A program made the position numbers and the translations under genes. The notes beneath the pieces were generated by a model, which was not told where the DNA came from, searched no databases, and was given only the letters and a program-made list of their open reading frames with translations. Below are positions 4,676 through 63,300 of a stretch of DNA of 64,000 bases, piece after piece. Within the stretch, counting starts at the first letter, position 1. The number at the start of each line of letters is the position of its first letter. The stretch lies in the IMG/VR virus record IMGVR_UViG_3300018411_000017, one strand, 5' to 3'. The stretch comes from a virus (Duplodnaviria > Heunggongvirae > Uroviricota > Caudoviricetes).

Positions 4676-4998
4676 AATAAATAAATTTAGTACCCCAAAT
4701 TGGATTCAAACCAATGTTTTAACCTTGAAGAGTTACGCCCTAGATCACTAGACGATTGGGGCTTATTAATAGTAGCAAGTATAAAATACACATAGGCCAA
4801 GTTAAAAGCGAAGACAAAGACCAGCTTCTAAACTAAGGCAAAGACAAAGTATTTTTTGTTTATTTTCTTAGAAGCTGTCGGTTTTTTGTTTGCTCATATA
4901 GCGTATATATTTTCGTCGCAAAACGCGTCGATCACGGTTTTGTATTTCATACTTGCTCAAAGTATAATATTAAATCTAATTTGATTTTAATTATACAC

Positions 4999-13582: not shown

Positions 13583-13686
13583 AGTGGAGAGAGTAGGAAT
13601 CGAACCTACATAAGTTGTCAAGCTTAATACATCTAGGGTTGACAATCCCATCATTGAGTATTTGCGTTTCCACTCCGCCATCTCCC
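13583..13686 (-). tRNA. atypical long tRNA-like gene (about 104 nt, class-II-like, anticodon unresolved)
   Basis: Minus strand: acceptor GGGGAGA/TCTCTCC (Ser-like), D-arm GCG-GAGTGGAAA-CGC, T-arm GTAGG-TTCGATT-CCTAC. The central region carries a perfect 7-bp hairpin TTGTCAA(17 nt)TTGACAA and is too long for a standard tRNA. Confidence 0.4.
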
Positions 13687-13761
13687 CTTTAAAACACTTT
13701 TTAATTATAATGGCAAAAAGTGCAAAATCCTTAGTCGAAAACGCAAAAGAAGGTTTATCGA

Positions 13762-19052: not shown

Positions 19053-19529
19053 TTAAATTAAATTACACATTTCTTGTAATGCATCATTCAAAGCTTCTTC
19101 ATAAGATGAAAAATCTTTTCCGCATACACCATCATAAGGAGGTCGCTCTATTTCATTTTGTGGATCTAATTGCACATCTATGATCTTATAAGTATAACCC
19201 GCAAATGTTGGTATAATGGCTGGATGTAACTTATGTTTGTCTCTGAACCATTTCTGAGCTACGTGTAATTCTAGCAATGGAACGACAATCTGTCTTTTAA
19301 TGGCTCCATTATCTAGTTTTTCTTCATAGCTATCACAGAAAGGGTCATAAGACTCTATTTCTTCCCATTCAGTCCAATTGGTTGGATCTTTTCTTTCTTC
19401 AGGATTCATTGATTCACAATGAAAGTTGATTCTACGTAGAATCATTTTGCAAGGTTTATTATAACCTTTTGCTTTAATTCTTTTTGCAGTTTCAAAGCTT
19501 GCATAACCATTAAATGTCAAGTTTGTCAT
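19053..19529 (-). CDS. hypothetical protein
   Basis: 158-aa ORF. Confidence 0.5.
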   Translation of the reverse strand: MTNLTFNGYASFETAKRIKAKGYNKPCKMILRRINFHCESMNPEERKDPTNWTEWEEIESYDPFCDSYEEKLDNGAIKRQIVVPLLELHVAQKWFRDKHKLHPAIIPTFAGYTYKIIDVQLDPQNEIERPPYDGVCGKDFSSYEEALNDALQEMCNLI

Positions 19530-19555
19530 AAGTGTTTATTTTATAAATTATTAAG

Positions 19556-19627
19556 TACTCAAACCAGGAGTTGAACCTGGGCTTCATGGATATAAGCCGT
19601 GCGTGCTAACCGTTACACCATTTGAGC
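19556..19627 (-). tRNA. tRNA, anticodon TAT (Ile-type, AUA decoder)
   Basis: Manual fold on minus strand: acceptor GCTCAAA/TTTGAGT; D-arm GTGT-AACGGTTA-GCAC; anticodon stem CACGG/CCATG (one C-A mismatch) with loop CTTATAT (U33, A37); 4-nt variable loop; T-arm CCAGG-TTCAACT-CCTGG. Confidence 0.55.
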
Positions 19628-20010
19628 GTTTGCCTTTTACACCTAAAACTAATTATACACCGTACGCCTACATAGTAGATTACGATTAATCAGAAACTGG
19701 TGTTCTCGAGGTCTTGAAAAGTTATTGAGTTTTTTAACCTAAAAACAGCTTACGAATATAGTATAAATGGGATTTAATATTATTTAATATTATTACCAAA
19801 CACATCAAGTATGTTACTATACTTAAGCTGAAAAAACTGACATTAATTATTAGTTTTTACTCCCTTAGTCATGCCCCTAAGCAGGCTTTGTAATCATAGG
19901 TCTTCGTAAGCCTATAATTGGTTTCATGCACAATATAGTATTTCAACTATATTTACTAAATAGATAGCTTTAAGCCTCTATTCACTCCAGTGCACTAGAA
20001 CATTATATAA

Positions 20011-20049
20011 CCATGTTTCTCAATAGTCCAAGAAACATGGGCGTTTTTA
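20011..20049 (+). terminator. strong hairpin followed by T-run (intrinsic-terminator-like, plus-strand orientation)
   Basis: CCATGTTTCT-caatagtcca-AGAAACATGG then GCGTTTTTA; lies in an ORF-free gap inside the minus-strand gene block. Confidence 0.4.
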
Positions 20050-20272
20050 CAATATATCATGAACACAACGGTCTAGATGTTTGATCATTGTGTTTAATCC
20101 ATAATATAGAAAAACTATACTTTTCTTTTATTCTCCAGAGCTTTAATGATGTTTGCAACCATTACTAAAGATGTTGGATAAGAGGATCTATCTCTTGCCA
20201 GGACTTTATATCCACACTATTATCCTAACTTTAATAGTGTGAATCTAGTTTTAAAGGATCTAGAAACCTAAT

Positions 20273-20620
20273 CTATAAATCTAATCGCTCTAATATCGGA
20301 GTTAATTTATCTTTCAACTCAGGATAATAGCGATACATGGTCGTTCTTGCATTCAATGATTTATCAGGTTTTGTTAAAGAACTGCACTCCCAATCTATTA
20401 TCATTGAAGTATAGTTTTTCCAAACAATGCTTTCAGGATGATGAGAGCTGAATTTGCGGTGAATCTTTTGTACGTATTTATATGGCATAATTAATCTAAG
20501 CCAAGGCTTATACCAATCATGAAATAAATGATACGGTTTCCAAACACCTAACAACACAGCGGTCATATTAAAAGCCAACCAATGAGCAAACCAATAAGAA
20601 AAAGACGATTTTTTATACAT
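20273..20620 (-). CDS. hypothetical protein
   Basis: 115 aa, Trp/Tyr-rich. Confidence 0.45.
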   Translation of the reverse strand: MYKKSSFSYWFAHWLAFNMTAVLLGVWKPYHLFHDWYKPWLRLIMPYKYVQKIHRKFSSHHPESIVWKNYTSMIIDWECSSLTKPDKSLNARTTMYRYYPELKDKLTPILERLDL

Positions 20621-23813: not shown

Positions 23814-23874
23814 GATTTGTCAGTTTAATAAAAATAGCTTATAGTACTTTGTAATCATACTATAAGCCAATTAT

Positions 23875-28239: not shown

Positions 28240-28959
28240 ATGGACGAACAAGAAGTAAAACAAAAGCCGAAATTCTTTTTACAACCAAATAAAAGCGCGC
28301 TATTACAATCTGGACTGCAATACCGTGACGTATTAACCTACGGAACGTTATTGTCTTTTTGCAATAAAAATTTAGAATGTTATCCCTCATTAAGATCTTT
28401 AGCTGAAAGATCTAAACTATCGGTTGGATTTCTATCTTCTTCAGTTGAAAGGTTGAAAAAAGCCAATTGGATAACTATTGAAAAGAAGTTAAACGGAAAA
28501 AGATCTTTTAATTATTATAAATGCAAACCGTTTGATGATTTTAAGATGGTTCCAATAGAAATCTTTGAGTCTGATTTACAAGCTGAAGATTTAGCAATAT
28601 TATTATGCATAAGGCAATTTTATTATGACGAAACGTTGATAACAGATATTAATATTGTAGAAATGTCTGATATACTTGGAGTATCTTATCCTACATTCTA
28701 TAGAAGATATGATATTCTTAAGAAGAAAGGATATATAACTATCAAAGTAAAAAATAATACATCTTTATCTAAATTAGAAGATAAAGACTTTGAGTGGAGG
28801 GTTAACATTGAGAAGAAGCTTAATGATACATATGATATGACTAAGAGAAATTCCGAAGAGATAGAGATGCTTAAAAATTTATTATATAAAACCATTAAAG
28901 CTGATAAGAAAGGTTCTAAGGAAGAATACTTTAAGTCACTGAAAAATAAGTCTGAATAA
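28240..28959 (+). CDS. DNA-binding protein with two wHTH-like domains (putative replication initiator or regulator)
   Basis: 239 aa; the two wHTH-like segments are SLRSLAERSKLSVGFLSSSVERLKKANWI and MSDILGVSYPTFYRRYDILKKKGYI; N-terminus is related to the N-terminus of the HNH protein at 32694; iterons lie upstream. Confidence 0.5.
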   Translation: MDEQEVKQKPKFFLQPNKSALLQSGLQYRDVLTYGTLLSFCNKNLECYPSLRSLAERSKLSVGFLSSSVERLKKANWITIEKKLNGKRSFNYYKCKPFDDFKMVPIEIFESDLQAEDLAILLCIRQFYYDETLITDINIVEMSDILGVSYPTFYRRYDILKKKGYITIKVKNNTSLSKLEDKDFEWRVNIEKKLNDTYDMTKRNSEEIEMLKNLLYKTIKADKKGSKEEYFKSLKNKSE

Positions 28960-29024
28960 TATCAAAAAGCGATGGGTCTCTTTATAAGAATATAGAACAT
29001 ATTACTTATCCCATCGCTTTTCTC

Positions 29025-29255
29025 CTATTTGTCATTGATATATAAATAAGCTAGATAGCCAGACATACAAACCGGTATTCCTATCCATACTATTAACAGA
29101 ATAACCATTAATGTATGGAATACAATCTCTCCAATGTTATTAAAATCCGCATGTGATATATATAATGAGACAAATAAATATCCCAAGTATATTAATCCTA
29201 CTGATATGATAAAGAATATTGCAGATAGTATCTTGCTAAAGATTCTCTGTTTCAT
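29025..29255 (-). CDS. small membrane protein (two TM)
   Basis: 76 aa, hydrophobic. Confidence 0.45.
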   Translation of the reverse strand: MKQRIFSKILSAIFFIISVGLIYLGYLFVSLYISHADFNNIGEIVFHTLMVILLIVWIGIPVCMSGYLAYLYINDK

Positions 29256-29524
29256 AGCTTATTCAGTTGATCCTTAACGGTGATAATTATCATACCAATC
29301 AGAAATGCTATACCCATTAGGTATAAAGCTATAATGATTGAGTAGAATAATATGAATCCTGCTAAGGTATCATAGAACTCGTTATTGGCAAGATCTACCT
29401 GAAGTAATGCTGGATTACTAATGATATGATCTATGTCAATACATGTAGTTATAAGAGCGACTGCAATGCTTATCGCACTTACCGCCATCCACGCGATGGC
29501 TATTATTCTGATCACATGTTTCAT
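29252..29524 (-). CDS. small membrane protein (three TM)
   Basis: 90 aa, hydrophobic. Confidence 0.45.
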   Translation of the reverse strand: MKHVIRIIAIAWMAVSAISIAVALITTCIDIDHIISNPALLQVDLANNEFYDTLAGFILFYSIIIALYLMGIAFLIGMIIITVKDQLNKL

Positions 29525-29739
29525 AACCTTTCTTTTTTCGTTTTCAGTTCTCTTAACCGATTAATTAGACTATCAGTAGGATAAACGCCATCGTTATACA
29601 ATAAAGCCTTCTCAGTGACATCTATGTCGATATCTAGCTGAACCTTATCCTTATAAGCTTTGACATCATCCTTGCTATTGCAAGATCCCACAACGCTAAC
29701 AATGCATAGGATTGTGATGAATAATAGTATATACCTCAT
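29521..29739 (-). CDS. small lipoprotein (paralog pair)
   Basis: 72 aa; lipobox VVGSC; C-terminal DSLINRLRELK is shared with the next ORF. Confidence 0.5.
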   Translation of the reverse strand: MRYILLFITILCIVSVVGSCNSKDDVKAYKDKVQLDIDIDVTEKALLYNDGVYPTDSLINRLRELKTKKERL

Positions 29740-29741
29740 AA

Positions 29742-29966
29742 TTATCTTATCTCTTTAAAGTATATACGATTTAATTCGTGCAATCTATCCATTAGACTAT
29801 CCTTTGGCAACGTGTTTAGCGTATCTGTCAGATAATACTCAGTCATCGCCATATCGGCGGTGATTTTCTCAAAGTAAAACTTTTTATACTTCTTCTGCTC
29901 TCTTGTCTCGCAAGAGGATAAAACAGCCATCATTAAGACAGCTATTACCAATGCAATGTATTTCAT
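29742..29966 (-). CDS. small lipoprotein (paralog pair)
   Basis: 74 aa; lipobox VLSSC; C-terminal DSLMDRLHELN. Confidence 0.5.
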   Translation of the reverse strand: MKYIALVIAVLMMAVLSSCETREQKKYKKFYFEKITADMAMTEYYLTDTLNTLPKDSLMDRLHELNRIYFKEIR

Positions 29967-30013
29967 ATCTTAAAAGTTAAAGTCAGCCCGAATTAACGGA
30001 CTGACATATGTTA

Positions 30014-30451
30014 TTAATCTATTACTACCACGTTACCACACTGATACTTCGCCCATCGTTCATATGAGCAGCAATCAGTCAAGATTTCATCAGATACACG
30101 ATCAAGAGCATTATTCTTGAATTCTTCAGCTAGTCCCTTTCTTTCAGCGTCCCACTTAGTTAGGAATTCTCCTTTGTGCTCAAGAGTTCTTACAACTCTT
30201 TGATAAGTGTAGCAAACTCTCATCTTAACCTTATTAAATGATTTAAAGGTTAAATTAATTTGGTCTCCGCTGAAAGGTTTTGCACTCTCTTTTATGACTG
30301 GTGTTGTATAAACTCCAGCTAATAAGGCAACGATATTATCAAACTCCTCTGAAGAGAAAGCTTCAGATTCTGACAATACTTCAACTACTGTAGCAACGTT
30401 GTTTTGGTCAACCATTTTGCTAACCAAAGCTTTAAATAATTCTTTGTTCAT
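30014..30451 (-). CDS. hypothetical protein
   Basis: 145-aa ORF. Confidence 0.5.
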   Translation of the reverse strand: MNKELFKALVSKMVDQNNVATVVEVLSESEAFSSEEFDNIVALLAGVYTTPVIKESAKPFSGDQINLTFKSFNKVKMRVCYTYQRVVRTLEHKGEFLTKWDAERKGLAEEFKNNALDRVSDEILTDCCSYERWAKYQCGNVVVID

Positions 30452-30541
30452 ATCTTATAAATTTTTAATTAGTTAATTTAAAAGTCGAGACCAGAGTGTA
30501 TCACTACAGTCTGATCCATAATGATTAATCAACATAATATT

Positions 30542-30814
30542 TTATCTAACTTTCTTTAGCTCGTTGAAAGCCTTCCTAGCGGCAATACCGCAAGGATATG
30601 GAAAGCTAGTGTCTTTATTTTTATCTTGGATAATAACATTATAACCGAACGCATGTTGCCCGGTTAAGGTAATGGTTCTACCCCATTTGTCTGTGAAAGA
30701 GTCTCTGACTCTTCGCTCACATCTCACTGGATTATATGTTCTCATATCTGTATTATTTAGAAGGGGAAAAAAGAAACCTAGAACTACAAGATAAATCTTG
30801 CTCTTATCCGACAA
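30542..30814 (-). CDS. hypothetical protein
   Basis: 90-aa ORF. Confidence 0.4.
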   Translation of the reverse strand: MSDKSKIYLVVLGFFFPLLNNTDMRTYNPVRCERRVRDSFTDKWGRTITLTGQHAFGYNVIIQDKNKDTSFPYPCGIAARKAFNELKKVR

Positions 30815-30919
30815 TTATTCTAGAATCATCCAGTGACGTGTTTATTTATACTCTATAACTGGACTAAGAGTTTAAAAGAGAGACTTTAATATTCGCCTCT
30901 CTCTATATTGTGTAATACT

Positions 30920-31099
30920 GCTATAAGTCGCAGTATTTTATTGTCTTTACCATCCTTTGAATTGGGCTTCTTTTGTCGCGATACACGACCTTTAGACCTT
31001 CAATTGTAGGATCAATTCCTACAACCTCGATGTCCCAATCTGAATGCGCAGGGATAGCCTGCAACATTTCTGTTATCTTAACGACTAATTCTTTTTGCA
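30920..31099 (-). CDS. small hypothetical protein (59 aa, below ORF-track threshold)
   Basis: ATG at 31099 (MQKELVVKITEMLQAIP...). On the minus strand it is followed by two hairpins: AATACTGC-tataagtc-GCAGTATT and AGAGAGAG..CTCTCT then TTTT. Confidence 0.35.
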
Positions 31100-32027
31100 T
31101 ATCTATAAGTTTTAATTAATTAATCTAAAAAAAATGAGTATCTCTAACACATATCGCCACTAAATAGAAAAGATTATACAGTTCTTATTTGCTTTGTATA
31201 TACCAACTTAATACTCTGAAGTTTAGGACAATTCTTACTAGTCCCTTTAGCCGAAACCCTTCTACGATTACAGAAACGGATTTCGTTGAATTCCTGTAAA
31301 AGAATTAATAGTAGATTCCACATCTTTAACACGTTTTGGGCATTAGCCCCACGCCAACTTGATGATATTCTACTACAGTTTATAAATTGTTGGATCTTCT
31401 TGATCCATGTCACCAGTCATCCTCTCAACTGGAGCAGTCATTTTTTTTATTACTACCAAAAATGACGGAAACTTAGCTAGACTAATCACTCCTGTCTAGG
31501 TTAATAGAGTGTTGCTTCGTTATTTATACTCTGAGCCAACCTGGAGCTTCAAGATAAACTTTTTAGGATTATCATGATATGTTTAAATGAGTATCTCTAA
31601 TTTAGCGCCTACAATTAGTAAGCGGTTATAACTTGATACTCTAAAGTTTAAGATGACAGTCATGACCACTGTCTAGATCCCAATCATTATCATAGGTTCA
31701 CTTTAATACGCAAACGATGTGGATAAACCATATTAAAGCTATACAATCTCTAACCCATAACCTTCCTAGGTGTTATAGCAACTTGATTGTCAATAGTTAA
31801 TTGATCTCTATACCTAAACAAATAAGTACAGAGAGATGACCTTTGGGTAGTCATCGTGAGGCCTATGCCAACCGGAAAACTTATTTATATGCCTGGGTAA
31901 AGACACGCTTATACCAGACTCCGTTGATCTTTTTCATAACTGTTCTTAATTATACTTGGTTATTCTTGGCCGGTTTCATACGGGAAGAACTATCAACAGC
32001 GTTAGCTGTTGACAGTCCTTAGACCGA

Positions 32028-32474
32028 TTACACGATAGTGTAATCAATCTTAATGATGCTACGGTCGTTAGCATCCCTTCCAAGGTTCTCGTACTGAGAA
32101 ACCTTGATAGTTTTGCCTACAAGAGAATTCTTAATAGTTCCGTAAGTCCCAAGGAGACCTCCTCTTTGCGCGGCCGACATATTCCTTTTCAAAGTTCCGA
32201 GGAAGATTCTCACAGGTAATCCAGTAGACGCCTCAGCAGCGTCAATCCAGATTACGTTTGCGTCAATCTTTTGTTTGACATTGTTTCTGGTTGTTTCAAT
32301 CTTACCCGCTTGAGACCCAAATCCAAGGATCTCGTAATCTTTTCCTGCCTCGATTTGGGCAAGACTAGTGGTGTTAAAGTCTTCCTTGACTTCTCCAGTA
32401 ACATCCTGGAGGAATGTTGGCTTAATACCAGCCAATAATGCCTTAGCGGCATCTTTTTTACCTTGTTCTAACAT
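32028..32474 (-). CDS. hypothetical protein
   Basis: 148-aa ORF. Confidence 0.5.
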   Translation of the reverse strand: MLEQGKKDAAKALLAGIKPTFLQDVTGEVKEDFNTTSLAQIEAGKDYEILGFGSQAGKIETTRNNVKQKIDANVIWIDAAEASTGLPVRIFLGTLKRNMSAAQRGGLLGTYGTIKNSLVGKTIKVSQYENLGRDANDRSIIKIDYTIV

Positions 32475-32651
32475 AATCTTTTTATTTAATTGTTAAAAAT
32501 CCTGGAGGAAAACTCTAAAATATTTTGGTTTCCAATCTCCAAAGTAGGGAGGGGGTGAAATACAAACAACCTCCACGGGTGTACTACAAACATGTTTTAC
32601 GCAATTAATTAATCTCTGGCATGATTTATTCTTTTATAAAAACATATTGCG

Positions 32652-51234: not shown

Positions 51235-52128
51235 ATGAATGAATTTAAAGATTGGGACGTAAAGATTGATGATCAGATAGACTTTTTTGACCCTAGTCTA
51301 TCTTATGAATTAACTGGGTATAGACCAATAACAGAAACGGAAGGATTAGACTTTGACCCTTCATGGTTTATGGAGGTTGTTGATTATAAAAATAAAAAAG
51401 GAGTACATTGTCCTAACCCTCCTGGCTCTTATGCTTTTAAAAACTTTTGGCTTGGAGAATATGATAAATGCAAAAATGGCTATAGCGTTAACGGTTATAG
51501 GATAACAGGCCATCATTATTTCTTTTTAAACTTTTATAAGCTTCTTAATGCGAATAATGTTGGCAAAGCAGGTTCTGGCCGTGAATATAGCAATCCTAAT
51601 TTTTGGGCTAAACACTATGAGTATTTTCATTATTTAGAAATGTGCGAATTGTTAGAAAAAGATGCTTGCGCTCTGAAAAGTCGTGGAGTCGGTTTTTCGG
51701 AGATTGGAGCTAGCATAGGGGCCTGCACATACTCAGTTGTGCAAAACTCAAAAACAATGTATATTGCCTCTGCTGAGAATTACTTATTGAAAAATGGTGT
51801 ATTACAGAAAGTATGGGATTGCCTTGAAACTCTTAACCAAGAAACAGAAGGAGGCTTAAGGCATTTGACGCAAAAGAAAAAAGAGCCAATGTGGAGAAGA
51901 GCTTCTGTGCTAGATAAACAAGGTCAGGAGTCTGGATGGATGTCTGAGGTATTTGGACAGGTTGTAGACAATTCAAGAAAATTAAGAGGTGTTCGTTTGG
52001 AATATTTACTATTCGAAGAATCAGGTTCTTTTAATGGATTAGTCACTGTGTATAATAAATCTGAAGCGCTAGTAAATTTGCTTGGGAAAAAGATCGGAAC
52101 AAGAATACTCTGGGGAACCGGTGAATAA
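51235..52128 (+). CDS. terL: terminase large subunit, N-terminal ATPase segment (upstream part of split gene)
   Basis: Walker-A-like KSRGVGFSEIGAS and Walker-B-like LEYLLFEESGS; ends with a stop just before the 1.1 kb insert. Confidence 0.6.
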   Translation: MNEFKDWDVKIDDQIDFFDPSLSYELTGYRPITETEGLDFDPSWFMEVVDYKNKKGVHCPNPPGSYAFKNFWLGEYDKCKNGYSVNGYRITGHHYFFLNFYKLLNANNVGKAGSGREYSNPNFWAKHYEYFHYLEMCELLEKDACALKSRGVGFSEIGASIGACTYSVVQNSKTMYIASAENYLLKNGVLQKVWDCLETLNQETEGGLRHLTQKKKEPMWRRASVLDKQGQESGWMSEVFGQVVDNSRKLRGVRLEYLLFEESGSFNGLVTVYNKSEALVNLLGKKIGTRILWGTGE

Positions 52129-52169
52129 CATTTTCTCCACCTGTTTGTTTTTTTTTATAATATTTTTTG

Positions 52170-52177
52170 TATATTTG
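52170..52177 (+). promoter_or_regulatory. Bacteroidetes-type -7 promoter element (TATATTTG) for the homing endonuclease
   Basis: 15 bp upstream of the ATG at 52192. Confidence 0.4.
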
Positions 52178-52191
52178 CATCTTAATATTAA

Positions 52192-53052
52192 ATGCGTAAT
52201 AAAATGGAAAATGTACAAAAACTGGAGATGGCTTTAATTGCGGCTGAAGAATATATAAATTCTAAAAAAGGAAGCATTAGTCTTACTCAATTGCAAAACA
52301 AATATGGTGTTAGAAGACAAGTTATTTCTAAAATTTTAAAAAATAAAGGAATTGAAGTTATAAATTATCAAAATCTGTCAAGAATAAATGAAAATATTTT
52401 TGACAATATTGATACAGAAGAAAAAGCCTATTGGCTTGGATTCATATATGCGGATGGATGTATATCCAATAATGGATATCGCTTTGAAGTTAGGTTGTCA
52501 AAAAAAGATGAAGATCATTTAATGAAATTGACTAGTTTTTTTAATGATGAAGGCAATTATAGATATGCAGAATCAAATGGGCATCAAGCTGTTCATTATT
52601 CTGTAAGAAATAAGCATTTGTGGGAAACATTAAATAATTATGGATGTACCCCAAGAAAGTCATTAACTGTCGTATTCCCTGATGAATCTATATTCTCAAG
52701 AAAAGAATTTATAAAAGACTTTATTCGAGGATATTGCGATGGGGATGGTTCATTAGGTGTTTATTTAGTTAAAAATAAAAATAGGATGCTAGAGCATTTA
52801 AGCTTTTGTGGTTCTGAAATGTTTTTAAACAAAATGGATGAATATCTTCCACGTCATTCTTCTGTATATGAAAAGAAAGACAATAAAATACATGTGATAA
52901 AATATTCAGCTTTTAAGGCAAGACTAAACGCTAGATTTATATACGAAAATTCCAATATTTACATGAATAGGAAATATAATGTTTTTGAAAATTTTTGCCG
53001 TCTTGAATTGGAAAATTCAAGATTACGACAGAGCAAAAACGGTGAAAGCTGA
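52192..53052 (+). CDS. LAGLIDADG homing endonuclease (double-motif) with N-terminal HTH
   Basis: KAYWLGFIYADGCIS (motif 1) and FIRGYCDGDGSLG (motif 2). Confidence 0.8.
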   Translation: MRNKMENVQKLEMALIAAEEYINSKKGSISLTQLQNKYGVRRQVISKILKNKGIEVINYQNLSRINENIFDNIDTEEKAYWLGFIYADGCISNNGYRFEVRLSKKDEDHLMKLTSFFNDEGNYRYAESNGHQAVHYSVRNKHLWETLNNYGCTPRKSLTVVFPDESIFSRKEFIKDFIRGYCDGDGSLGVYLVKNKNRMLEHLSFCGSEMFLNKMDEYLPRHSSVYEKKDNKIHVIKYSAFKARLNARFIYENSNIYMNRKYNVFENFCRLELENSRLRQSKNGES

Positions 53053-53235
53053 GATGCTGATACCGTGCTAAATCTTTCTATTTCGAAAGGAGAAAGATCA
53101 GTGTAACGCATAGATGCTGAATAAATATAATGCATCCACGAGTGCTCTGCACCCAGGACGGGTGAAAATATATGCTGAACTTATATGAATTCAAATATAA
53201 GAACATATGGATAAAAAGCCATATGGGTAACACAA

Positions 53236-54444
53236 TTGGGAGACTCGGGACCGGCCTTGGCGGGTCTTGAAAAAATATTTTTAAATCCTCAAAACTTTAA
53301 CATACTCCCTTATTATCATAATCATTTTGAGAATGGAGAGTATAGATTAACTGGATTTTTTATTCCTGCTTATAGCTGTCTACCTCCTTTAATGGATAGT
53401 AGAGGCGTTACTAATCAGGAAAAAGCTAAAGAGCATTATAATAAGATTAGAGCTCAAAAAGTAAGCACACCACAAAACTGGCTAGAATATTGTTCTGAGT
53501 TTTGTTTTTATCCGGAAGAGGCATTGTCTAAACAAGGAGAGAATCAATTTGATCAGGTAAAAATAACAGAACAGATAACAGAAGTTAAGATATTAAAAAA
53601 TACACCAAAAACGTTAAAGGTAGGGAAACTGACATGGAATTATAAAGATAATTCTGAAGAGATAATCGGAGTTACATTTAGACCTGATCCTAGTGGTAAT
53701 ATCATTGTATTAGAGGAGCCATTAACAGATGACATAGGAAAACCTTTTGAAGGGTTGTATGTCGGAGGAATCGACTCTATTGACCACGCAGAAGGAGACT
53801 CCGTTGTAGGTTCTGATGGTTCTAAATTTGCTATAACAATTAAGAAAAGGACATTTGGTAATGAAGGCAACAAGTATGTTTGTATGTATATAGAAAGACC
53901 AAAGGATGTAAGAACAGCGTACGAAAATGCAGCTAAAATATTATGGTGGTATGGATGTAAAGCAAACTTAGAAGATACTAAGATCGGATTTAGAATGTAT
54001 TTACAAGAGCGAAAATTACTTTATAAAATGTTAATGAAAAGACCTGTTTCAGCTCAATCATCTATCAAGCGTTCTTCTACATTATGGGGTACTCCAGGGT
54101 CTGAGAAGATGATACAACACGGATTAGATCTCGTTGCTCAATATGTTGATGACTTTTATTTTAATATATGGTTTATAGATATGTTAGAGCAATTACAAAA
54201 GTTTTCATATGAAGCAAAAGGTCGATTTGATATTATATTGGCTATGGTTTATACGGAAATAGCAGATGAAGATATGATGGGAATTGTAGTTAAAAAAGAT
54301 AATCCGATGCAATCAGACTGGGAAGAGTATGGCGAGATTGGTTGGTTTACAGATAGTAGAGGTTATAAATATTTTGGCTACGAAAAGCAATATGACAATT
54401 ACTCAAGCGAACGAAATCCGAGAATTCATTCTAACATATTTTAG
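53236..54444 (+). CDS. terL: terminase large subunit, C-terminal nuclease segment (downstream part of split gene)
   Basis: Frame is open from 53215; the first possible start is TTG at 53236 and there is no in-frame ATG; LYVGGIDSIDHAEGDS is an RNase-H-like nuclease Asp motif. Confidence 0.6.
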   Translation: MGDSGPALAGLEKIFLNPQNFNILPYYHNHFENGEYRLTGFFIPAYSCLPPLMDSRGVTNQEKAKEHYNKIRAQKVSTPQNWLEYCSEFCFYPEEALSKQGENQFDQVKITEQITEVKILKNTPKTLKVGKLTWNYKDNSEEIIGVTFRPDPSGNIIVLEEPLTDDIGKPFEGLYVGGIDSIDHAEGDSVVGSDGSKFAITIKKRTFGNEGNKYVCMYIERPKDVRTAYENAAKILWWYGCKANLEDTKIGFRMYLQERKLLYKMLMKRPVSAQSSIKRSSTLWGTPGSEKMIQHGLDLVAQYVDDFYFNIWFIDMLEQLQKFSYEAKGRFDIILAMVYTEIADEDMMGIVVKKDNPMQSDWEEYGEIGWFTDSRGYKYFGYEKQYDNYSSERNPRIHSNIF

Positions 54445-56919: not shown

Positions 56920-57368
56920 TGAATACACCTAAATATATTATTATACATTGTTCTGCGACTAAGGTTACTTCTAATTTTACAGTAGAACAGATTATCGATA
57001 TGCATAAACAGCGAGGATTTAACACCATTGGATATCATTATTATATAACTAAAGACGGAGTTATTCATAAAGGAAGAGATGAATCTATCAATGGAGCGCA
57101 CTGTTTAGGGTATAATTCAAAATCTATAGGCGTTTGTTACGAGGGTGGGCTTGATAAAAACGGAAAGGCAAAAGATACTAGAACTGACGCGCAAAAAGAA
57201 TCTCTCATTAGTTTGATTAAGCAATTAAAAGGTAAATATAAAATAGATAAAGTAATGGGACATAGAGATACTTCGCCTGATAAAGACGGTGACGGTATTG
57301 TAGAACCTCATGAATGGATAAAGCAATGTCCTTGTTTTAATGCTATAGATGAATATAAAACTATTTAG
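56919..57368 (+). CDS. N-acetylmuramoyl-L-alanine amidase (Amidase_2 / T7 lysozyme family)
   Basis: IIIHCSAT..GYHYYI..GAHC..NSKSIGVCYEGG..GHRD..CPCF aligns with the Zn ligands and catalytic residues of T7 lysozyme. Confidence 0.9.
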   Translation: MNTPKYIIIHCSATKVTSNFTVEQIIDMHKQRGFNTIGYHYYITKDGVIHKGRDESINGAHCLGYNSKSIGVCYEGGLDKNGKAKDTRTDAQKESLISLIKQLKGKYKIDKVMGHRDTSPDKDGDGIVEPHEWIKQCPCFNAIDEYKTI

Positions 57369-57370
57369 AT

Positions 57371-60300
57371 ATGTCAACAATAAACATAGAATCAGGAGGC
57401 AAATCAATCCCTATCGCAAAGGTAGGGATTATTGACTCCCAAGAAAAGATATTATTAGGTAGCCTTGAAAGAGATTTAGTATTGCAAACATTAGGCAATA
57501 TATCAATTCAAGCTGGTAATATGTTCTATAAGCTATCATTTGATAGTTCTGGGAATATTTCTACTTCTAACAATAATATGGTAGAGTTACAGAGTCTTGA
57601 TAATTTCTCTATATCGTCTTATGATAATGGCACTTTTATATTTGATTTATCAACTGAATCATTGTATTTAGTATATAGCAAAGACCTAATCCCTATTGCA
57701 GGAGTCAGTGCATCTGACTATATTTATTTATCATTTATAAATGAACAGACATTAACAGGCGAACAAAAACAAAGACTTGTATTAAATTCAGGTGCTTATG
57801 TTAAGTCATTAAACGATGTCGCCTATTTTTCTCGTGCTGATGTTTATGAGAATCAGATCATATTTGTAGAAGACGAAAAACAGCATTATATATTAACCGA
57901 TATAAACAATCCAAACGGTAAGTCCGCTTGGACTACATTTTATATAGGAATGAATGGAGGTATAATATATAATGGTCTTGAAATACAAAATACAAATAGA
58001 GAGAATCTATTGCATTTAAATGGAGTAGATGATTTTACCCCAGGACGATTTAATGGGTTAAAAATAGGAAATTCTGAAAAAAGCGTAAAGCTATCTGTCA
58101 ATACGAAAAATCAAACAGTAATAGATTCTAATACAGAATCATTAATTATAAAAACTGCTAAAGCCGATATATTATATTATCACGATGGAAATCTTGGTAT
58201 ATATGGAGAGCCAGCAACATCAGATAAATACAAAATAGCCATTAATGGTACAACCAAGTTCAGTGATTCAGTATTTTTAGAAAGACGATTAACGTCGACT
58301 GACTTTATAACTACTAATATAACTCATTGGGATGGCGGGCAAGGATTTGGGTTGATAAAGACTGTTAATAATAAGTGGTTCTTTGAATGCGATGATATGG
58401 TAGTTAGAGGATCGTTAGTTGCCAATAAATTAAAACTTAAGGAATTAGAAGTTGAAAGGGCTTACGCTACAGGCGGGCATATGCTTATAACAGATGGTGC
58501 GGATGTAGATGCTGTTTATTATAGGTTGCCAACTGCTGAAGAATTGGAAACTGCTAATATTGCTAATAATGGCAATTACGGGACTTTGGATGCTAATACC
58601 TATTATTACTTTATAACATTTAAAGACTCCACAGAGAAAGACGATAGTAATGCTTATGTAGCTTTAGATACAACACCAAATGCTACGACTTCAACATCTG
58701 GAGAAGGATCTAGTATAGAAGAGGATACATTAGATGCAGAAAACTATTGTCCATTTATCAATGGAGATGTACTTCTTTGTCAAACAGCGTCTGGCAAATC
58801 GGCTAAAAAATACTATTGTTTAGTAACTTATTCTACTAATAAATACGCTGTTGTTAAAGCTAATGATTTTAGAAATAACATTATATATCAATATAATGAA
58901 CTCGGTGAAATCGTAAATGTTGATACAAGATTTTTGGTTGAATCAGGAGATACATTAATAAGAGTTACTAATATATTATATAAGAATGGTATTTATGAAT
59001 ATAAAAATAGGCGCAGATTCATAGATATAGACGGTACTAGAAATCAAATAACGATGTATGATAATTTAGGTGATCCAAATCTGTTTACTAGTACACCTAC
59101 AGAATTTAATACATACGATGATATAAATATAATTACCGGCATAGGTCCCAATGGAGCTTTGAGGCTAAGAATGGGCGAATTATCCGATTTAAACATACCC
59201 GGTTTAACAGGTTATGGGTTATATGGAGATAATGTCTATTTGAAAGGTAGGCTAATAGTAAAAACTGATGATTATGAAGAGATCGTAGGAGCTAATAGAG
59301 GGTCTTGGGTTTTTGGTAATCTAAATAAATATTATATTAATGATTTAGTCACTTATAATGGATCTGTTTATAGATGCATTGTAGAACATCAAAATACGAT
59401 TTCATCTAGCTCAATACCTGGCGTTTCTGATTTTTGGGAGATATGGGTTCAAAAAGGAACAGACGGTACTCCTGGGTCTAACTTTAGTTACGTTGATATT
59501 GTTGGAGATCAAGTATTTATATACAATTCAGGTTCTGGGACATATGATAAAACTGTGATTCCATTGACTTGTACGGCTTTTAATGTCGATTACGATAGCT
59601 TAATTAATATAAAATTTGAATGGGTTATATCAGGAGCTGTAATATACTCTCATACTTATTTAAAATCAGAAGTTACAGCAGGTTCTATTTCTGATTCTAA
59701 AAATATATATGTTACTGGTATAAACGAAGGAATGGATTGGTCTAGCTTGTGGAATGGAGATTCGTCTTTAACGGTTTCTTGTAGGGTTTATATAAATGAT
59801 TCAACGGATTATAATTCAGATGTGTTTTCTGTTTACAAAGTTCAAAATGGTGCAGACGGAGAAACTCCATTGACTGGTTATATCACAAATGACGCTATAT
59901 CTTTGAGCGCTGATACTAACAATAATGTTATTAGCTATTCTTATGCGAATGGATATTTCAAAGTATTTTATGGATTAACTGATGTAACTAGTGGTTGTAC
60001 GTTTTCGTCTACATCTATAAATTGCACAGGGTCTATTAATACGTCTGGATATTATAATGTAACGGATATGACTCAAGCTGCTACTATTGCTACATTAACA
60101 TTAACAGCGACGTACAACGGAACTACTATTACAAAAGAATTTTCATTGTCTAAGTCAAGAACAGGATCTTCTGCTATTTTATATGAGGTTAAACCAAGTG
60201 TTTATACTGTGACCAAAAGTATAACAAATACTTTTACTCCTACGAGCGTTGTTTTCTCATTCTATAAAACAGAAGGATCTTCTACCGTTTCTTATTCAGG

Positions 60301-63300
60301 ATATTATAGAACTTATTCGTCAACAGATGGGACCGTATATAGCTTGATAACAAGTTCAAGTGGCACTTCGGCGTCTGTAACGCCTAATTCTACTTATAGA
60401 TCATTTAAATGTGAATTATATACAGACTCGAGTTATACAACAAAGGTTGATGAACAGTCGGTTTTAGTGGTTAGCGATGGAGCAACTGGATTAAACTCTG
60501 TAAATGGAGTATTGACAAATGATGCTGTTACGGTTTTTGCGGCAACTGATGGAACCGTGTCAGACTTTTCATATGCTGCTGGGACTTTTAAAATGTATTA
60601 TGGGACTACAGATGTAACGGCTTCTTCTACTTTTAGTTCTACTGCGACTAATTGTACTGGATCGATTGCGTCTAATGGAGTCTATTCTATTACGGCATTC
60701 CCTGCTGCTAATAACAATGGATATCTAAATTTAACTGGAACATATAATGGAGTTTCTATTACACGAATATTTTCTATATCAAAATCAAAAACTGGATCGA
60801 CTGGAGCAGATGCTGTTATATATGAAATACAATCAAGTACTTCTACAATAGCTAAAAATATAAGCAATGTATTTTCTCCTACATCAGTAACTTTTACATT
60901 TTATAGAAGATATGGTTCAGGAAATAGGTCTTTATTTACGGGATATTATAAAACGTTTTATTCTACTGATGGGGTTAATTACACCCAGATATCTTCAACA
61001 TCTGGTTCCTCTGTGTCTGTAACACCTGGAACATCGTATAGATCAATTAAGTGCGATCTTTACTCTGATTCTGGTTACGTAAATCTTGTAGATTCTCAAA
61101 CCTGTTTAATTGTTTCTGATGGAAATACTGGGGCTGCTGGCCAAGATGCATTCACTGTAATATTAAGCAATGAGGCTATGACTGTGCCGGCTATGTATTC
61201 CGGTGCTTTCCCTGCAAATATATTCTCTGATTATGACTACAGTTCTAATGTTGTAGTATATAGAGGGTCTACCAAATTAAATTATGCAGCCACATCAGGA
61301 TATAGCTATACAGTTGGTTTATTGACTGGTTCTAGGTTTAGTACAACCATTTCAACATCAGGCACAGAATGTAAAATTAGAATAAACAATATTACTCAAG
61401 ATTTATCTGGTGGATTATATATCCCAGATTATATGGTTGCTAATTTTTACGTTTCCATATTATATAATAACGTAGCTACTGGCACTGCTTTCACTAAAAC
61501 AATAGCTGTTTCCAAAGCAAAACAAGGTCCATTGTTGGATTGGATAAAAGAATGGGATAGCAATTCAACTTTAGTAGGTTCTCAATATGTTATATCTCCT
61601 AAGATATTTGCTGGTACAAATAATGGCGGATCTCCTACTGGTGTTATAGTTGGTAGAAATGCATTTAATTTAACAGAGATTGGAGTTGCTGGATATTATA
61701 ATGGAAATAATACGTTCTATTTAAGCGCTCTAGACGGATCTTTTAAATTCGGACAAGGCAATAGTTCTATTGTTTATAATCCTTCAGCTAATACTGTTAC
61801 GTTTGGCTCTAACGTATCTTTGAATTGGACTAATTATACAGATACTGCTGTTAATAATGTCCAAGTTGGCGGGAAAAATATAATAAGAAATTCCTTTAAT
61901 TGGCAGGATTTTAGCTACTGGGAAGGCAATGGGTCCACGATGTCTATAGTCGGTATAGATGGCTCTAATTGCATGAGATTGACAGGTGTTTATGGTGTCG
62001 GTCAATATATTGGCAAGCAATTAAAACCAAATACATATTACACCTTTAGCGCATATGCAAGATCTTCTGTTGATCTACCAGGTGGAGCTGATCAACAGTT
62101 GCATATCCAGATATGGAGAGTTGAAGATACTGGAAATGTACACCAAGATAGCGCCGTTAATTCAGATACCAATTTCTCTGCTAATGTATGGAAAAAAGCT
62201 TGGTATACATTTAAAACTCCTGCTAGTTCGGAATTGTGTTATTGTCGACTATATTTTTATCCATTATCATCTGGTACATTTGATGTTAGATATTGCCAAT
62301 TAGAAGAAGGTAATAAACCTACAGATTGGTCTCCATGTCCTGATGACGTATCTAATTCCATTCTTATAGCAAAAAATGCTGCTGATGCTGCTCAGATTGA
62401 TGCTGATCAAGCGCAATATGATGCCAATATAGCTAATGGCAAGCTAAGTGATTTGGCAAATGACAATAAGCTTACTGCTGTCGAAAAACAACAGACTAAG
62501 ACAGAATGGGATATAATCGCGTCTGAGTATAGTAAAATAACTAGTCAAGCATCTACCTATGGAGTTGATTATAGTTCTTATACGAACGCTTATAATGCGC
62601 TGTCTTCTTACATAACTCCTTTATTAGGCGATTTAACAACTACATCTGATATAGCGGGATCTACCTTCAGATCAAATTTTAAATCTTATTACGACGCTCG
62701 AACTGATCTTTTAAATGTTATTGCTATAAAAGCAAAGACATTAGCTGGTAATGCTCAAGACGCTGCGGATAACGCTCAAACTTCTGCGAATAATGCAAAC
62801 TCGTTATTATCAGATATGTCAAATGACGGAAAGCTGACTTCTGTTGAAAAGCAACAAATCAAATTAGAATGGGATGGAATTAATGCTGAATATCAAAAGA
62901 ATGCAAATCAAGCATATGCATTTGGACAAGATTATACAGCTTATTACAATGCCTATAACGGGTTAAATGGATATTTGAGTCCATTATTAAGCAATTTAGC
63001 TTCAACATCAGATATCAATGGTACAACTTTTAGAAGTTATTTTAGTTCTTATTATGCCGCTAGAACTGATTTATTAAATGCTATTTCAATTGCGGCAAAA
63101 TCTCAAGCTATTAGTACAGCTTCGGATGACGCTACTGATAAGTCTAATACAGCTTATACTAATGCTAAAAATTATGTAGATGCTAATTATGTAAACAATA
63201 CGACATATTCTAACGGAATTGCTGGGGCTGTTAATAAAGCAGACGACGCTAGGGAGACTGCATTAGCAATGGCTTTTGGCAGAATGGTATATAGAGATCC

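Follow-up and report, generated by a model that had tools for sequence, protein, structure and literature searches.

A diverged copy of a two-block motif of crAss-like phages, a putative leader RNA, joined to a lineage-specific spacer beside a phage tRNA-Ile gene

Introduction

The question raised by the locus described here is what occupies a long stretch without genes next to the tRNA-Ile gene of a large tailed phage. The DNA analysed, called the window throughout, is the whole stretch of 64,000 nucleotides (nt) from IMG/VR record IMGVR_UViG_3300018411_000017, an AT-rich (about 30% GC) piece of the phage genome with portal, terminase and GroEL genes. Since the tRNA-Ile gene occupies 19555..19627, the true non-coding stretch is 19628..20272 (645 nt), which extends from a gene of 115 amino acids (aa) to the tRNA, everything there lying on the minus strand. 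An earlier reading, made from the sequence only, had proposed that this gap may encode one or more small RNAs, possibly antisense ones from the plus strand, or a larger structured non-coding RNA (ncRNA) of the GOLLD or ROOL kind. The explanation that we favour, with a probability of about one half, is that the gap is a composite, in which a diverged copy of a conserved motif, read as a cis-acting leader RNA, is joined to a lineage-specific spacer within a recombination-prone block of accessory genes.

A two-block motif next to the tRNA-Ile gene

When the inserted part of the gap was compared with GenBank phages by sensitive blastn, a match of 47-55 nt was obtained in numerous crAss-like phages, the matching DNA being unannotated in every case. 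A second query, the 126 nt nearest to the tRNA, matched in two separate blocks whose spacing varied (E = 8e-6 to 1e-3), and in 13 of the 13 GenBank phage records fetched both blocks were present in one and the same architecture. That is, the 5′ block is made up of an A-run, a 6-base-pair (bp) hairpin with a 13-nt loop (hairpin 1) and then CACC, and reads ...AAAAAACUCAAU-AACUUCCCAAGAC-AUUGAG-G(G/A)CACC-AGUUUC, while the near-invariant 3′ block, AGUUUUAGGUGUAAAA(U/G)GC, follows on the same strand 46-137 nt past the 5′ block. The two strands of a further stem enclose a variable insert of 25-120 nt, and the complete family architecture is AAAAAACUCAAU-AACUUCCCAAGAC-AUUGAG-G(G/A)CACC-AGUUU-[stem + insert]-UUUU-A-GGUGU-AAAAUGC.

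One copy of the motif is present in the window, on the same strand as the tRNA-Ile gene and 4 nt upstream of it (Table 1). Positions 19735..19693 read AAAAAACUCAAU-AACUUUUCAAGAC-CUCGAG-AACACC-AGUUUC, with 5 differences in the 24-nt core, and the copy has a stem of the kind required of family members (at least 6 bp, directly after AGUUU and directly before UUUU). Among the related loci (numbered with an L), the exact 19-mer of the 3′ block is kept unchanged in L019-L024, in L027-L029 and in two loci that are without the tRNA, L018 and L067; a C>U change at 19708 in L067 restores a pair of hairpin 1.

Table 1. Features of the gap and its flanks, in order of position (hairpin energies in kcal/mol, window -> L018)
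Feature	Positions	Strand	Basis or remark
158-aa gene (phrog_12005), downstream flank	19053..19529	minus	ORF list and PHROGs match
tRNA-Ile (anticodon UAU)	19555..19627	minus	ARAGORN; Rfam tRNA model, 60.5 bits
Diverged two-block motif copy, 104 nt	19632..19735	minus	blastn to crAss-like phages, E = 8e-6
Motif copy: 3′ block AGUUUUAGGUGUAAAAGGC	19650..19632	minus	ends 4 nt before the tRNA; spacing within range
Motif copy: stem CUGAUUA/UAAUUAG	19693..19687 with 19655..19649	minus	7 pairs including one G-U
Motif copy: 31-nt variable insert	19686..19656	minus	resembles the insert of L163
Motif copy: ACACC	19703..19699	minus	
Motif copy: A-run and hairpin 1	19735..19705	minus	
Spacer module M2	19736..19960	minus	in window, L018 and L067; absent from L070 and L020-L030
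Y-shaped domain	19926..19996		minus -21.6 -> -19.0; plus -14.6 -> -10.8
Spacer module M1, 275 nt	19961..20235	minus	deleted in L067; bears both 10-bp hairpins and the 20062..20094 hairpin
Hairpin CCATGTTTCT/AGAAACATGG	20011..20040		minus -14.2 -> -12.3; plus -12.4 -> -6.2
Hairpin AACACAA/TTGTGTT	20062..20094		
Hairpin CACACTATTA/TAATAGTGTG	20213..20241		minus -13.7 -> -12.2; plus -11.6 -> -7.2
Conserved 3′ trailer of the 115-aa gene, small UCUAG...CUAGA hairpin	20243..20272	minus	common to L018, L067 and L070 (L070 without the insert)
115-aa gene, function unknown, upstream flank	20273..20620	minus	ORF list

Two simpler views of short segments of the motif were considered and rejected. A TATAAT at 19657..19652 is not a -10 box, since this sequence, which is specific to the window, forms the 3′ strand of the covarying stem, and a gene start at the ATG of the 3′ block was ruled out because the open reading frames (ORFs) concerned have a median length of 8 codons and the window has AGG at this place. 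The canonical 3′ block, AGGUG-UAAA-AUG (canonical copies in L082-L250), does resemble a Shine-Dalgarno sequence with a start codon, and its GGUG could be masked by the conserved CACC located upstream. In cr10_1 a 62-aa coding sequence annotated as 'ribosomal protein' begins 48 nt past the 3′ block.

Covariation in the motif stem

The evidence for selection on the motif at the RNA level comes from an alignment of 33 distinct cores, from which the interior of the insert had been removed. The stem closing the insert shows compensatory double changes in 6 of its 8 pairs, and the number of double-change cells was 48, against 21.8 ± 3.4 in shuffled alignments (0 of 500). Furthermore, the covariation score was 0.181, compared with 0.080 for shuffles and at most 0.067 when the partners were slid by 1-3 columns, and 92% of the cells were paired as opposed to 30-46% with slid partners. 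Judged by these comparisons, the motif is demonstrably under selection at the RNA level across the family.

Distribution and genomic context of the motif

The exact 23-mer of the 5′ block occurs in at least 120 IMG/VR contigs, and the exact 19-mer of the 3′ block likewise in at least 120. Among the matches listed, to which the IMG/VR counts in this section refer, the motif-bearing contigs are either about 95-105 kb, the size of crAss-like genomes, or 146-270 kb. Both blocks were present in 112 of 120 loci, 46-137 nt apart, giving 95 distinct elements. In 21 of these, the loop of hairpin 1 contains an additional hairpin with a GNRA cap. Another 36 loci were found via the 3′ block only, 25 with a diverged 5′ block and about 9 without one. 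In the complete crAss-like genomes among the matches listed, the motif occurs once per record, and overall it spans at least two crAss-like families as well as larger (146-270 kb) gut phages.

The genes and RNAs downstream of the motif are heterogeneous. In crAss-like loci, RAGATH-6, RAGATH-7, RAGATH-14 and Hatchet RNAs lie 150-400 nt downstream of the motif and in the same orientation, within ncRNA arrays of 1-2 kb that are unannotated in GenBank; the motif heads every array examined, and tRNAs are located at the far end. Such unannotated 1-2-kb arrays are those of L083 (NC_055889, cr53_1), L084 (NC_055897, cr114_1), L086 (NC_055898, cr115_1), L087, L088 and L092, in which Rfam-significant matches to Hatchet (up to two each), RAGATH-6, RAGATH-7 and RAGATH-14 were obtained. 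A same-strand tRNA follows the motif in 47 of the 112 loci. Across 127 contexts, the distance to the start of the next same-strand ORF of at least 50 aa is at most 60 nt in 42 and at most 150 nt in 76, the remainder being ncRNA arrays. No downstream gene family is common to these loci, as 71 downstream proteins fell into 29 clusters. From this context, the motif appears to be a generic element that stands at the start of transcription units. The unit headed would be the tRNA-Ile in this jumbo-type phage and a 160-aa gene in L018 and L067, which are without the tRNA.

Coding content of the gap and its variation among relatives

The absence of ORFs described in the sequence-only reading was borne out over the full 645 nt. 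In none of the frames does an ORF of at least 60 aa extend into 19530..20272; within the gap the maximum length is 33 aa, for an ORF that begins with TTG, and the minus-strand ORFs starting with ATG are all shorter than 20 aa. TAA, TAG and TGA occur in every frame (minus-strand counts 13/7/4, 9/5/4 and 9/8/2); since all three types are present in each frame, recoding of a single stop would open none, and stop-codon recoding was ruled out for all six frames. The gap gave no protein-level trace of a decayed gene against the proteins of neighbouring genes (tblastn) or against 70 loci (tblastx), and six-frame scans with Pfam and PHROGs at E<=10 returned nothing. These tblastn and tblastx comparisons were also without signal for two particular candidates, namely a decayed copy of the genes that trail the 115-aa homologue elsewhere and a decayed HNH endonuclease, an enzyme found at the same site in relatives. 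Period-3 composition gave no signal in the gap either, which is uninformative since small genes in mixed frames score alike. Nor did any relative examined have an ORF replacing the spacer, and no intact ORF corresponding to any part of the gap was found in homologous phages.

The relatives, of which the diverged ones were fetched using the flanking proteins, differ considerably in what lies between the 115-aa gene and the tRNA. L018, 97.3% identical upstream, contains the whole gap with 14-15 substitutions, and L067 contains it minus a clean internal 275 nt (20236 being joined to 19960); the tRNA-Ile gene is absent from both and was found in L019-L030 and L070. In L070 just 69 nt separate the 115-aa gene from the tRNA, about 575 nt being missing. 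The 115-aa gene and the gap are both lacking in L020-22 (a 939-nt insertion/deletion, or indel), six genes are gone in L023, L024 and L029, and an intact 180-aa HNH homing endonuclease is encoded exactly at the gap position in L027 and L028. The endonuclease gene (L027:2-547, L028:186-728) or its 3′ remnant (L023, about 600-690; L029, about 90-170) lies directly upstream of the 3′ block and the tRNA-Ile gene. Moreover, the downstream gene of L018 and L067 is more diverged (87-88% nucleotide identity, against 97% upstream), which together with their lack of the tRNA indicates a recombination breakpoint at the tRNA. The gap region is a hotspot of gain and loss.

The gap can thus be resolved into the 30-nt trailer of the 115-aa gene (20243..20272), two modules (19961..20235 and 19736..19960), the motif (19632..19735) and 4 nt before the tRNA. 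The spacer of about 510 nt (19736..20242) is lineage-specific, dispensable and composed of at least two indel modules, with no homologue and no coding trace in the searches made. Module M2 has weak hairpins, a 9-12-bp stem at 19890..19922 and part of the Y-shaped domain, and no homologue of it was found in the 120 motif-bearing loci listed. A covariance model of the most structured core (19922..20102) had no match in 295 kb of related loci, and exact patterns of the two best hairpins retrieved nothing from IMG/VR and 11 chance matches without extended similarity from GTDB. A protein-guided search for relatives gave none among genome contigs, and only distant, non-syntenic ones plus L067 from IMG/VR and JGI.

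Hairpins and folding of the spacer

All three hairpins pointed out in the sequence-only reading are present (Table 1). Those at 20011..20040 and 20213..20241 are paired in 10 of 10 positions, and GCGTTTTTA comes after the former, at 20041..20049. In the 64 kb there are only 7 perfect 10-bp stems (with loops of 3-14 nt), and 2 of them fall inside the 645-nt gap, where 0.07 would be expected. The minimum free energy (MFE) of 19658..20242 was also lower than that of dinucleotide shuffles (z = -3.3 for each strand, a stability attained by none of the 100 shuffles), with z = -2.9 (minus) and -3.9 (plus) for 19961..20242 and -2.0 (minus) and -1.5 (plus) for 19716..19960. Compared with GC-matched 150-nt windows of the whole sequence, however, the gap is only the third most structured stretch of about 625 nt on the minus strand. 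The enrichment in hairpins is therefore real, but strong structure throughout the gap was not upheld.

With regard to strand, GC-adjusted stability averaged z = -1.34 for the minus strand versus -0.57 for the plus strand. Substitutions between the window and L018 at predicted paired sites kept the pairing in 8 of 13 cases on the minus strand (7 of them via G-U) versus 3 of 13 on the plus strand. The changes that L018 has in the two best hairpins produce A-C mismatches on the plus strand, but on the minus strand they give G-U pairs. As for sequence divergence, the window differs from L018 by 2.2% in the gap compared with 8.0% at synonymous sites (Fisher p = 4e-5), a difference that can be regarded as a hint of constraint.

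A putative leader RNA joined to a spacer

The gap is presumably transcribed in the minus-strand direction, given that the motif, the tRNA and the genes on either side all have this orientation. Position and architecture suggest that the motif is most likely a cis-acting leader RNA. It would act in cis as the 5′ leader of the downstream unit, that is, the tRNA-Ile and probably the 158-aa gene, and could influence how far the downstream RNA is read through, processed, stabilized or translated; CACC can pair with the GGUG of the Shine-Dalgarno-like AGGUG. In this phage, cleavage by RNase P at the 5′ end of the tRNA would release the leader. The stem-loops of the spacer, if functional at all, would act in the minus-strand transcript, most likely as hairpins located between the 115-aa gene and the leader that mark 3′ ends, stabilize the RNA or serve its processing; alternatively, they may simply be tolerated relic DNA.

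A number of observations weigh against this composite reading. Hairpin 1, the CACC/GGUG pairing and a possible AAAA/UUUU pseudoknot are without covariation support, and, given the near-invariance of the blocks, the alignment neither supports nor contradicts them. The window copy itself is degenerate, its hairpin 1 keeping 3-4 of 6 pairs, with GAACACC instead of GGGCACC and AGG instead of the AUG of the 3′ block, so that its activity in this phage is uncertain and it may be decaying rather than working. Furthermore, the 5′ half has been lost in many close relatives. Only the 3′ block of the motif remains in L020-L029, where it is 4 nt upstream of the tRNA-Ile gene, and it is also alone in the roughly 9 of 36 additional IMG/VR loci mentioned above; this retention suggests an autonomous role, possibly at the DNA level. 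In the spacer, the RNAalifold consensus shows covariation in 0 of 148 pairs. The low divergence of the gap is about half that of 4-fold degenerate sites (8 of 169, or 4.7%, a small sample) and falls inside the per-gene range of synonymous divergence (pS 0.019-0.19). Moreover, the sense strand of the 158-aa coding gene has an MFE z of -4.2 (0 of 150 shuffles), which beats every part of the gap; in this genome, therefore, ncRNA and coding sequence cannot be told apart by MFE z alone. Finally, both the strand and the existence of the RNA are deduced from sequence alone.

No Rfam 15 family was matched by the motif in crAss-like loci, and the motif is absent from Rfam 15. Literature searches with the literal motif sequence and for descriptions of crAss ncRNAs gave nothing relevant in the literature covered, beyond which a description may exist. 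We consider it possible, though rather less likely than the composite itself, that the motif represents an undescribed class of functional RNA heading ncRNA arrays and accessory units, which could be a cis regulator (by processive antitermination or by masking of the translation signal AGGUG) or even a ribozyme that sets the 5′ end of the arrays of ribozymes, RAGATH RNAs and tRNAs. The motif is of more interest than the gap that led to it. Phages of the crAss-like group rank with the most abundant viruses in the human gut, and the motif could serve as a handle on the expression or processing of their ncRNA arrays, which are functionally unexplained. Its occurrence in both crAss-like and unrelated larger phages shows horizontal sharing of a non-coding module. 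For annotation, the locus is a warning that hairpin-rich gaps beside tRNAs can be mosaics, with a short conserved RNA in dispensable spacer.

Alternative explanations

For the spacer (19736..20242), relic DNA at a homing-endonuclease hotspot is a serious alternative, although on balance an unlikely one: the approximately 510 nt would be what is left of a decayed accessory gene or homing-endonuclease cassette, and its hairpins incidental or leftover terminators. The site is indeed a hotspot of mobile DNA, with an HNH endonuclease in L027 and L028 and a remnant in L023 and L029, and in this phage itself an endonuclease gene interrupts that of the terminase. In addition, the spacer is present, partly deleted or absent in close relatives, and has neither covariation nor a homologue in the searches made. 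Against this, the six frames have no protein similarity to Pfam, PHROGs, the neighbour genes of relatives or the 70 loci, and two perfect 10-bp stems in place of an expected 0.07 are unlike decayed coding sequence; the substitutions, moreover, favour keeping the minus-strand stems, and divergence is below that of synonymous sites.

Somewhat less probable still is that the conserved blocks are signals at the DNA level (promoter or initiation site, origin, protein-binding site) with an incidental hairpin. In one variant, the 3′ block would be a phage or host promoter, its -10-like hexamer being TAAAAT/TAAAAG, 6-7 nt before the 5′ end of the tRNA. Such a signal could account for the perfect conservation of the 19-nt 3′ block, for its survival alone near tRNA-Ile and in the nine or so loci lacking the 5′ block, for its usual location 20-150 nt upstream of the next ORF, and for the one copy per genome. 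The last point cuts both ways, however, since promoters of one class do not usually occur just once in a genome, and a block spacing of 46-137 nt is unsuited to a two-part promoter. The compensatory changes in the stem and the GNRA hairpin insertions argue for selection on a folded transcript that spans both blocks.

That the whole 645 nt constitutes a single large, ornate ncRNA, a new class analogous to ROOL and GOLLD, appears very improbable. ROOL RNAs average 581 nt, are rumen-derived and are found beside phage tRNAs (PMC5737381, PMC12286853), to which an insert of about 585 nt beside a tRNA in a rumen/gut phage would correspond well. A folding energy below that of shuffles also speaks for this reading. 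The location in a phage and adjacency to a tRNA are thus as in GOLLD and ROOL, which also come from rumen/gut or lake metagenomes, but context alone does not define a family, and the resemblance to ROOL is one of context and size only. The window was searched with cmscan and all 4227 Rfam 15 families, using permissive filters at E<=10 on 19400..20500 and 19640..20260. At gathering score only tRNAs were obtained in the window; in the gap at E<=10 there were only chance matches of microRNA-type hairpins. There was no match to GOLLD (RF01998), ROOL (RF03087) or HEARO (RF02033), and none in the window to the models of Hatchet, twister, hammerhead, pistol, hepatitis delta virus (HDV)-like ribozymes or RAGATH-6, -7 and -14. 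The same search finds Hatchet and RAGATH RNAs downstream of the motif in crAss-like loci, which indicates that it works on such sequence, and GOLLD, ROOL, HEARO and the known self-cleaving ribozymes are excluded as family assignments.

Independently of any model, the natural deletions of 275 nt and about 575 nt are hard to reconcile with a single functional RNA of 600 nt. Outside the lineage only 104 nt are conserved, the rest being a modular, dispensable insert, and folding predictions give a succession of local hairpins, with no sign of the region-spanning multistem junctions or pseudoknots of ROOL and GOLLD and no compensatory pair. In folding energy, only M1 has a notable z, and the adjoining coding gene scores better. 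The idea of a structured ncRNA beside the tRNA therefore survives in part: a small conserved element does exist there, although on the minus strand and as a motif outside Rfam, not as a member of GOLLD or ROOL.

The proposal of antisense small RNAs transcribed from the plus strand, with intrinsic terminators on that strand, is likewise very improbable, because the 20011..20040 stem with GCGTTTTTA, although picked up in a plus-strand terminator scan, has its T-run 3 nt from the stem, because terminator-like sites (1 in 2.4 kb, against 0.8 ± 0.9 in shuffles) and promoter counts are both within expectation, and because the A-C mismatches of L018 roughly halve the plus-strand stability while the minus strand is the more stable and the conserved motif points the same way as the tRNA and all neighbouring genes. 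In that stem 4 of 10 pairs are G-C, and the scan lists an alternative stem of 5 bp. Weak sigma-70-like matches occur on the plus strand, e.g. at 19734..19762; no plus-strand gene lies within 19 kb upstream of 20011..20049.

Comparison with other phage RNAs

Orphan structured RNAs, among them the RAGATH RNAs and Hatchet, are clustered in non-coding arrays of gut metagenomes and phages. RAGATH-6 (RF02686), RAGATH-7 (RF03159), RAGATH-14 (RF03145) and Hatchet (RF02678) share the crAss-like arrays with the motif and are, like it, compact and conserved. Unlike these RNAs, the motif matches no model, stands first in the array, is single-copy and is also found directly before ORFs or a tRNA.

Cis-acting leaders at operon heads include the processive-antitermination RNA put of phage HK022, leaders that sequester the Shine-Dalgarno sequence, and riboswitches. 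The motif is like them in its position at the head of a unit, in the combination of conserved sequence with a variable peripheral stem, and in the potential pairing of CACC with the GGUG of a Shine-Dalgarno-like AGGUG-N4-AUG. It differs in having no sequence or model similarity to them and in its heterogeneous cargo, which includes non-translated RNAs; any tie to a ligand, partner or terminator is putative.

Theta ribozymes (minimal HDV-like ribozymes) were reportedly found next to gut-phage tRNAs by Kienbeck et al. in 2024, located 3′ of the tRNAs and cleaving at their own 5′ end. These are likewise small structured RNAs abutting gut-phage tRNAs, and one copy of the motif lies 74 nt from an amber-suppressor tRNA. 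The motif, however, is 5′ of the tRNA, has no HDV-like Rfam match and is mostly not tRNA-adjacent. Hyperplastic regions of T4-type phages, with promoter-early stem-loops (PeSLs) repeated many times per genome, are said to have been described by Arbiol et al. in 2010. The present region is similar in its small early-type accessory genes, indels, hairpin-bearing intergenic DNA and nearby homing endonucleases, but unlike PeSLs nothing in the gap is repeated elsewhere in the window; no repeat or promoter motif common to the gap and the other intergenic regions of the window was found.

Flanking genes and further observations in the window

The window also encodes a 2155-aa fibre-like protein and a 32-kb minus-strand block of small genes, and the standard genetic code is used across it. 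It is matched by Ga0075011_10000015 (a JGI contig of 109 kb) and by contigs from two further samples, with 0-1 mismatch over 5-12 kb, and metagenomes of rumen and human gut yielded more distant homologues of the window's genes. Homologues of the 115-aa gene occur in many large gut and rumen phages, in unrelated contexts.

The large terminase gene (51235..54444, plus strand) is split, with the N-terminal half at 51235..52128 (phrog_6681 positions 79-333) and the C-terminal half at 53236..54444 (phrog_6681 positions 341-731). A 286-aa endonuclease gene (phrog_4645) is located between the halves, at 52192..53052. This looks like an insertion of a homing endonuclease or an intron; no group I intron was detected there with Rfam at E<=5. 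An apparently ORF-free stretch of 3.3 kb at 57.4-60.7 kb proved to be an artefact, as a giant ORF of at least 2214 codons (57359..64000, plus strand), directly after the portal gene, runs past the end of the window and is missing from the ORF list.

The Rfam tRNA model also matched 13585..13687 and 4691..4762, both on the minus strand and at 44.4 bits each, neither of which is called by ARAGORN; the former match is 103 nt long, suggesting a long variable arm or an intron. The most stable minus-strand folding of the window was at 31901..32525 and 28900..32000 (rolling GC-adjusted z = -2.3), close to the strand-switch region. That region has several ORF-poor gaps (30815..31173, 31414..32027) and a replication-initiator-like gene (28240..28959); no Rfam match was obtained there at gathering score. 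Lastly, the minus strand has a perfect 10-bp hairpin at 23837..23867, in an intergenic gap of 61 nt, with UAUUUUUAUU after it; nothing in the 19628..20272 gap is as good a candidate for a terminator on that strand.

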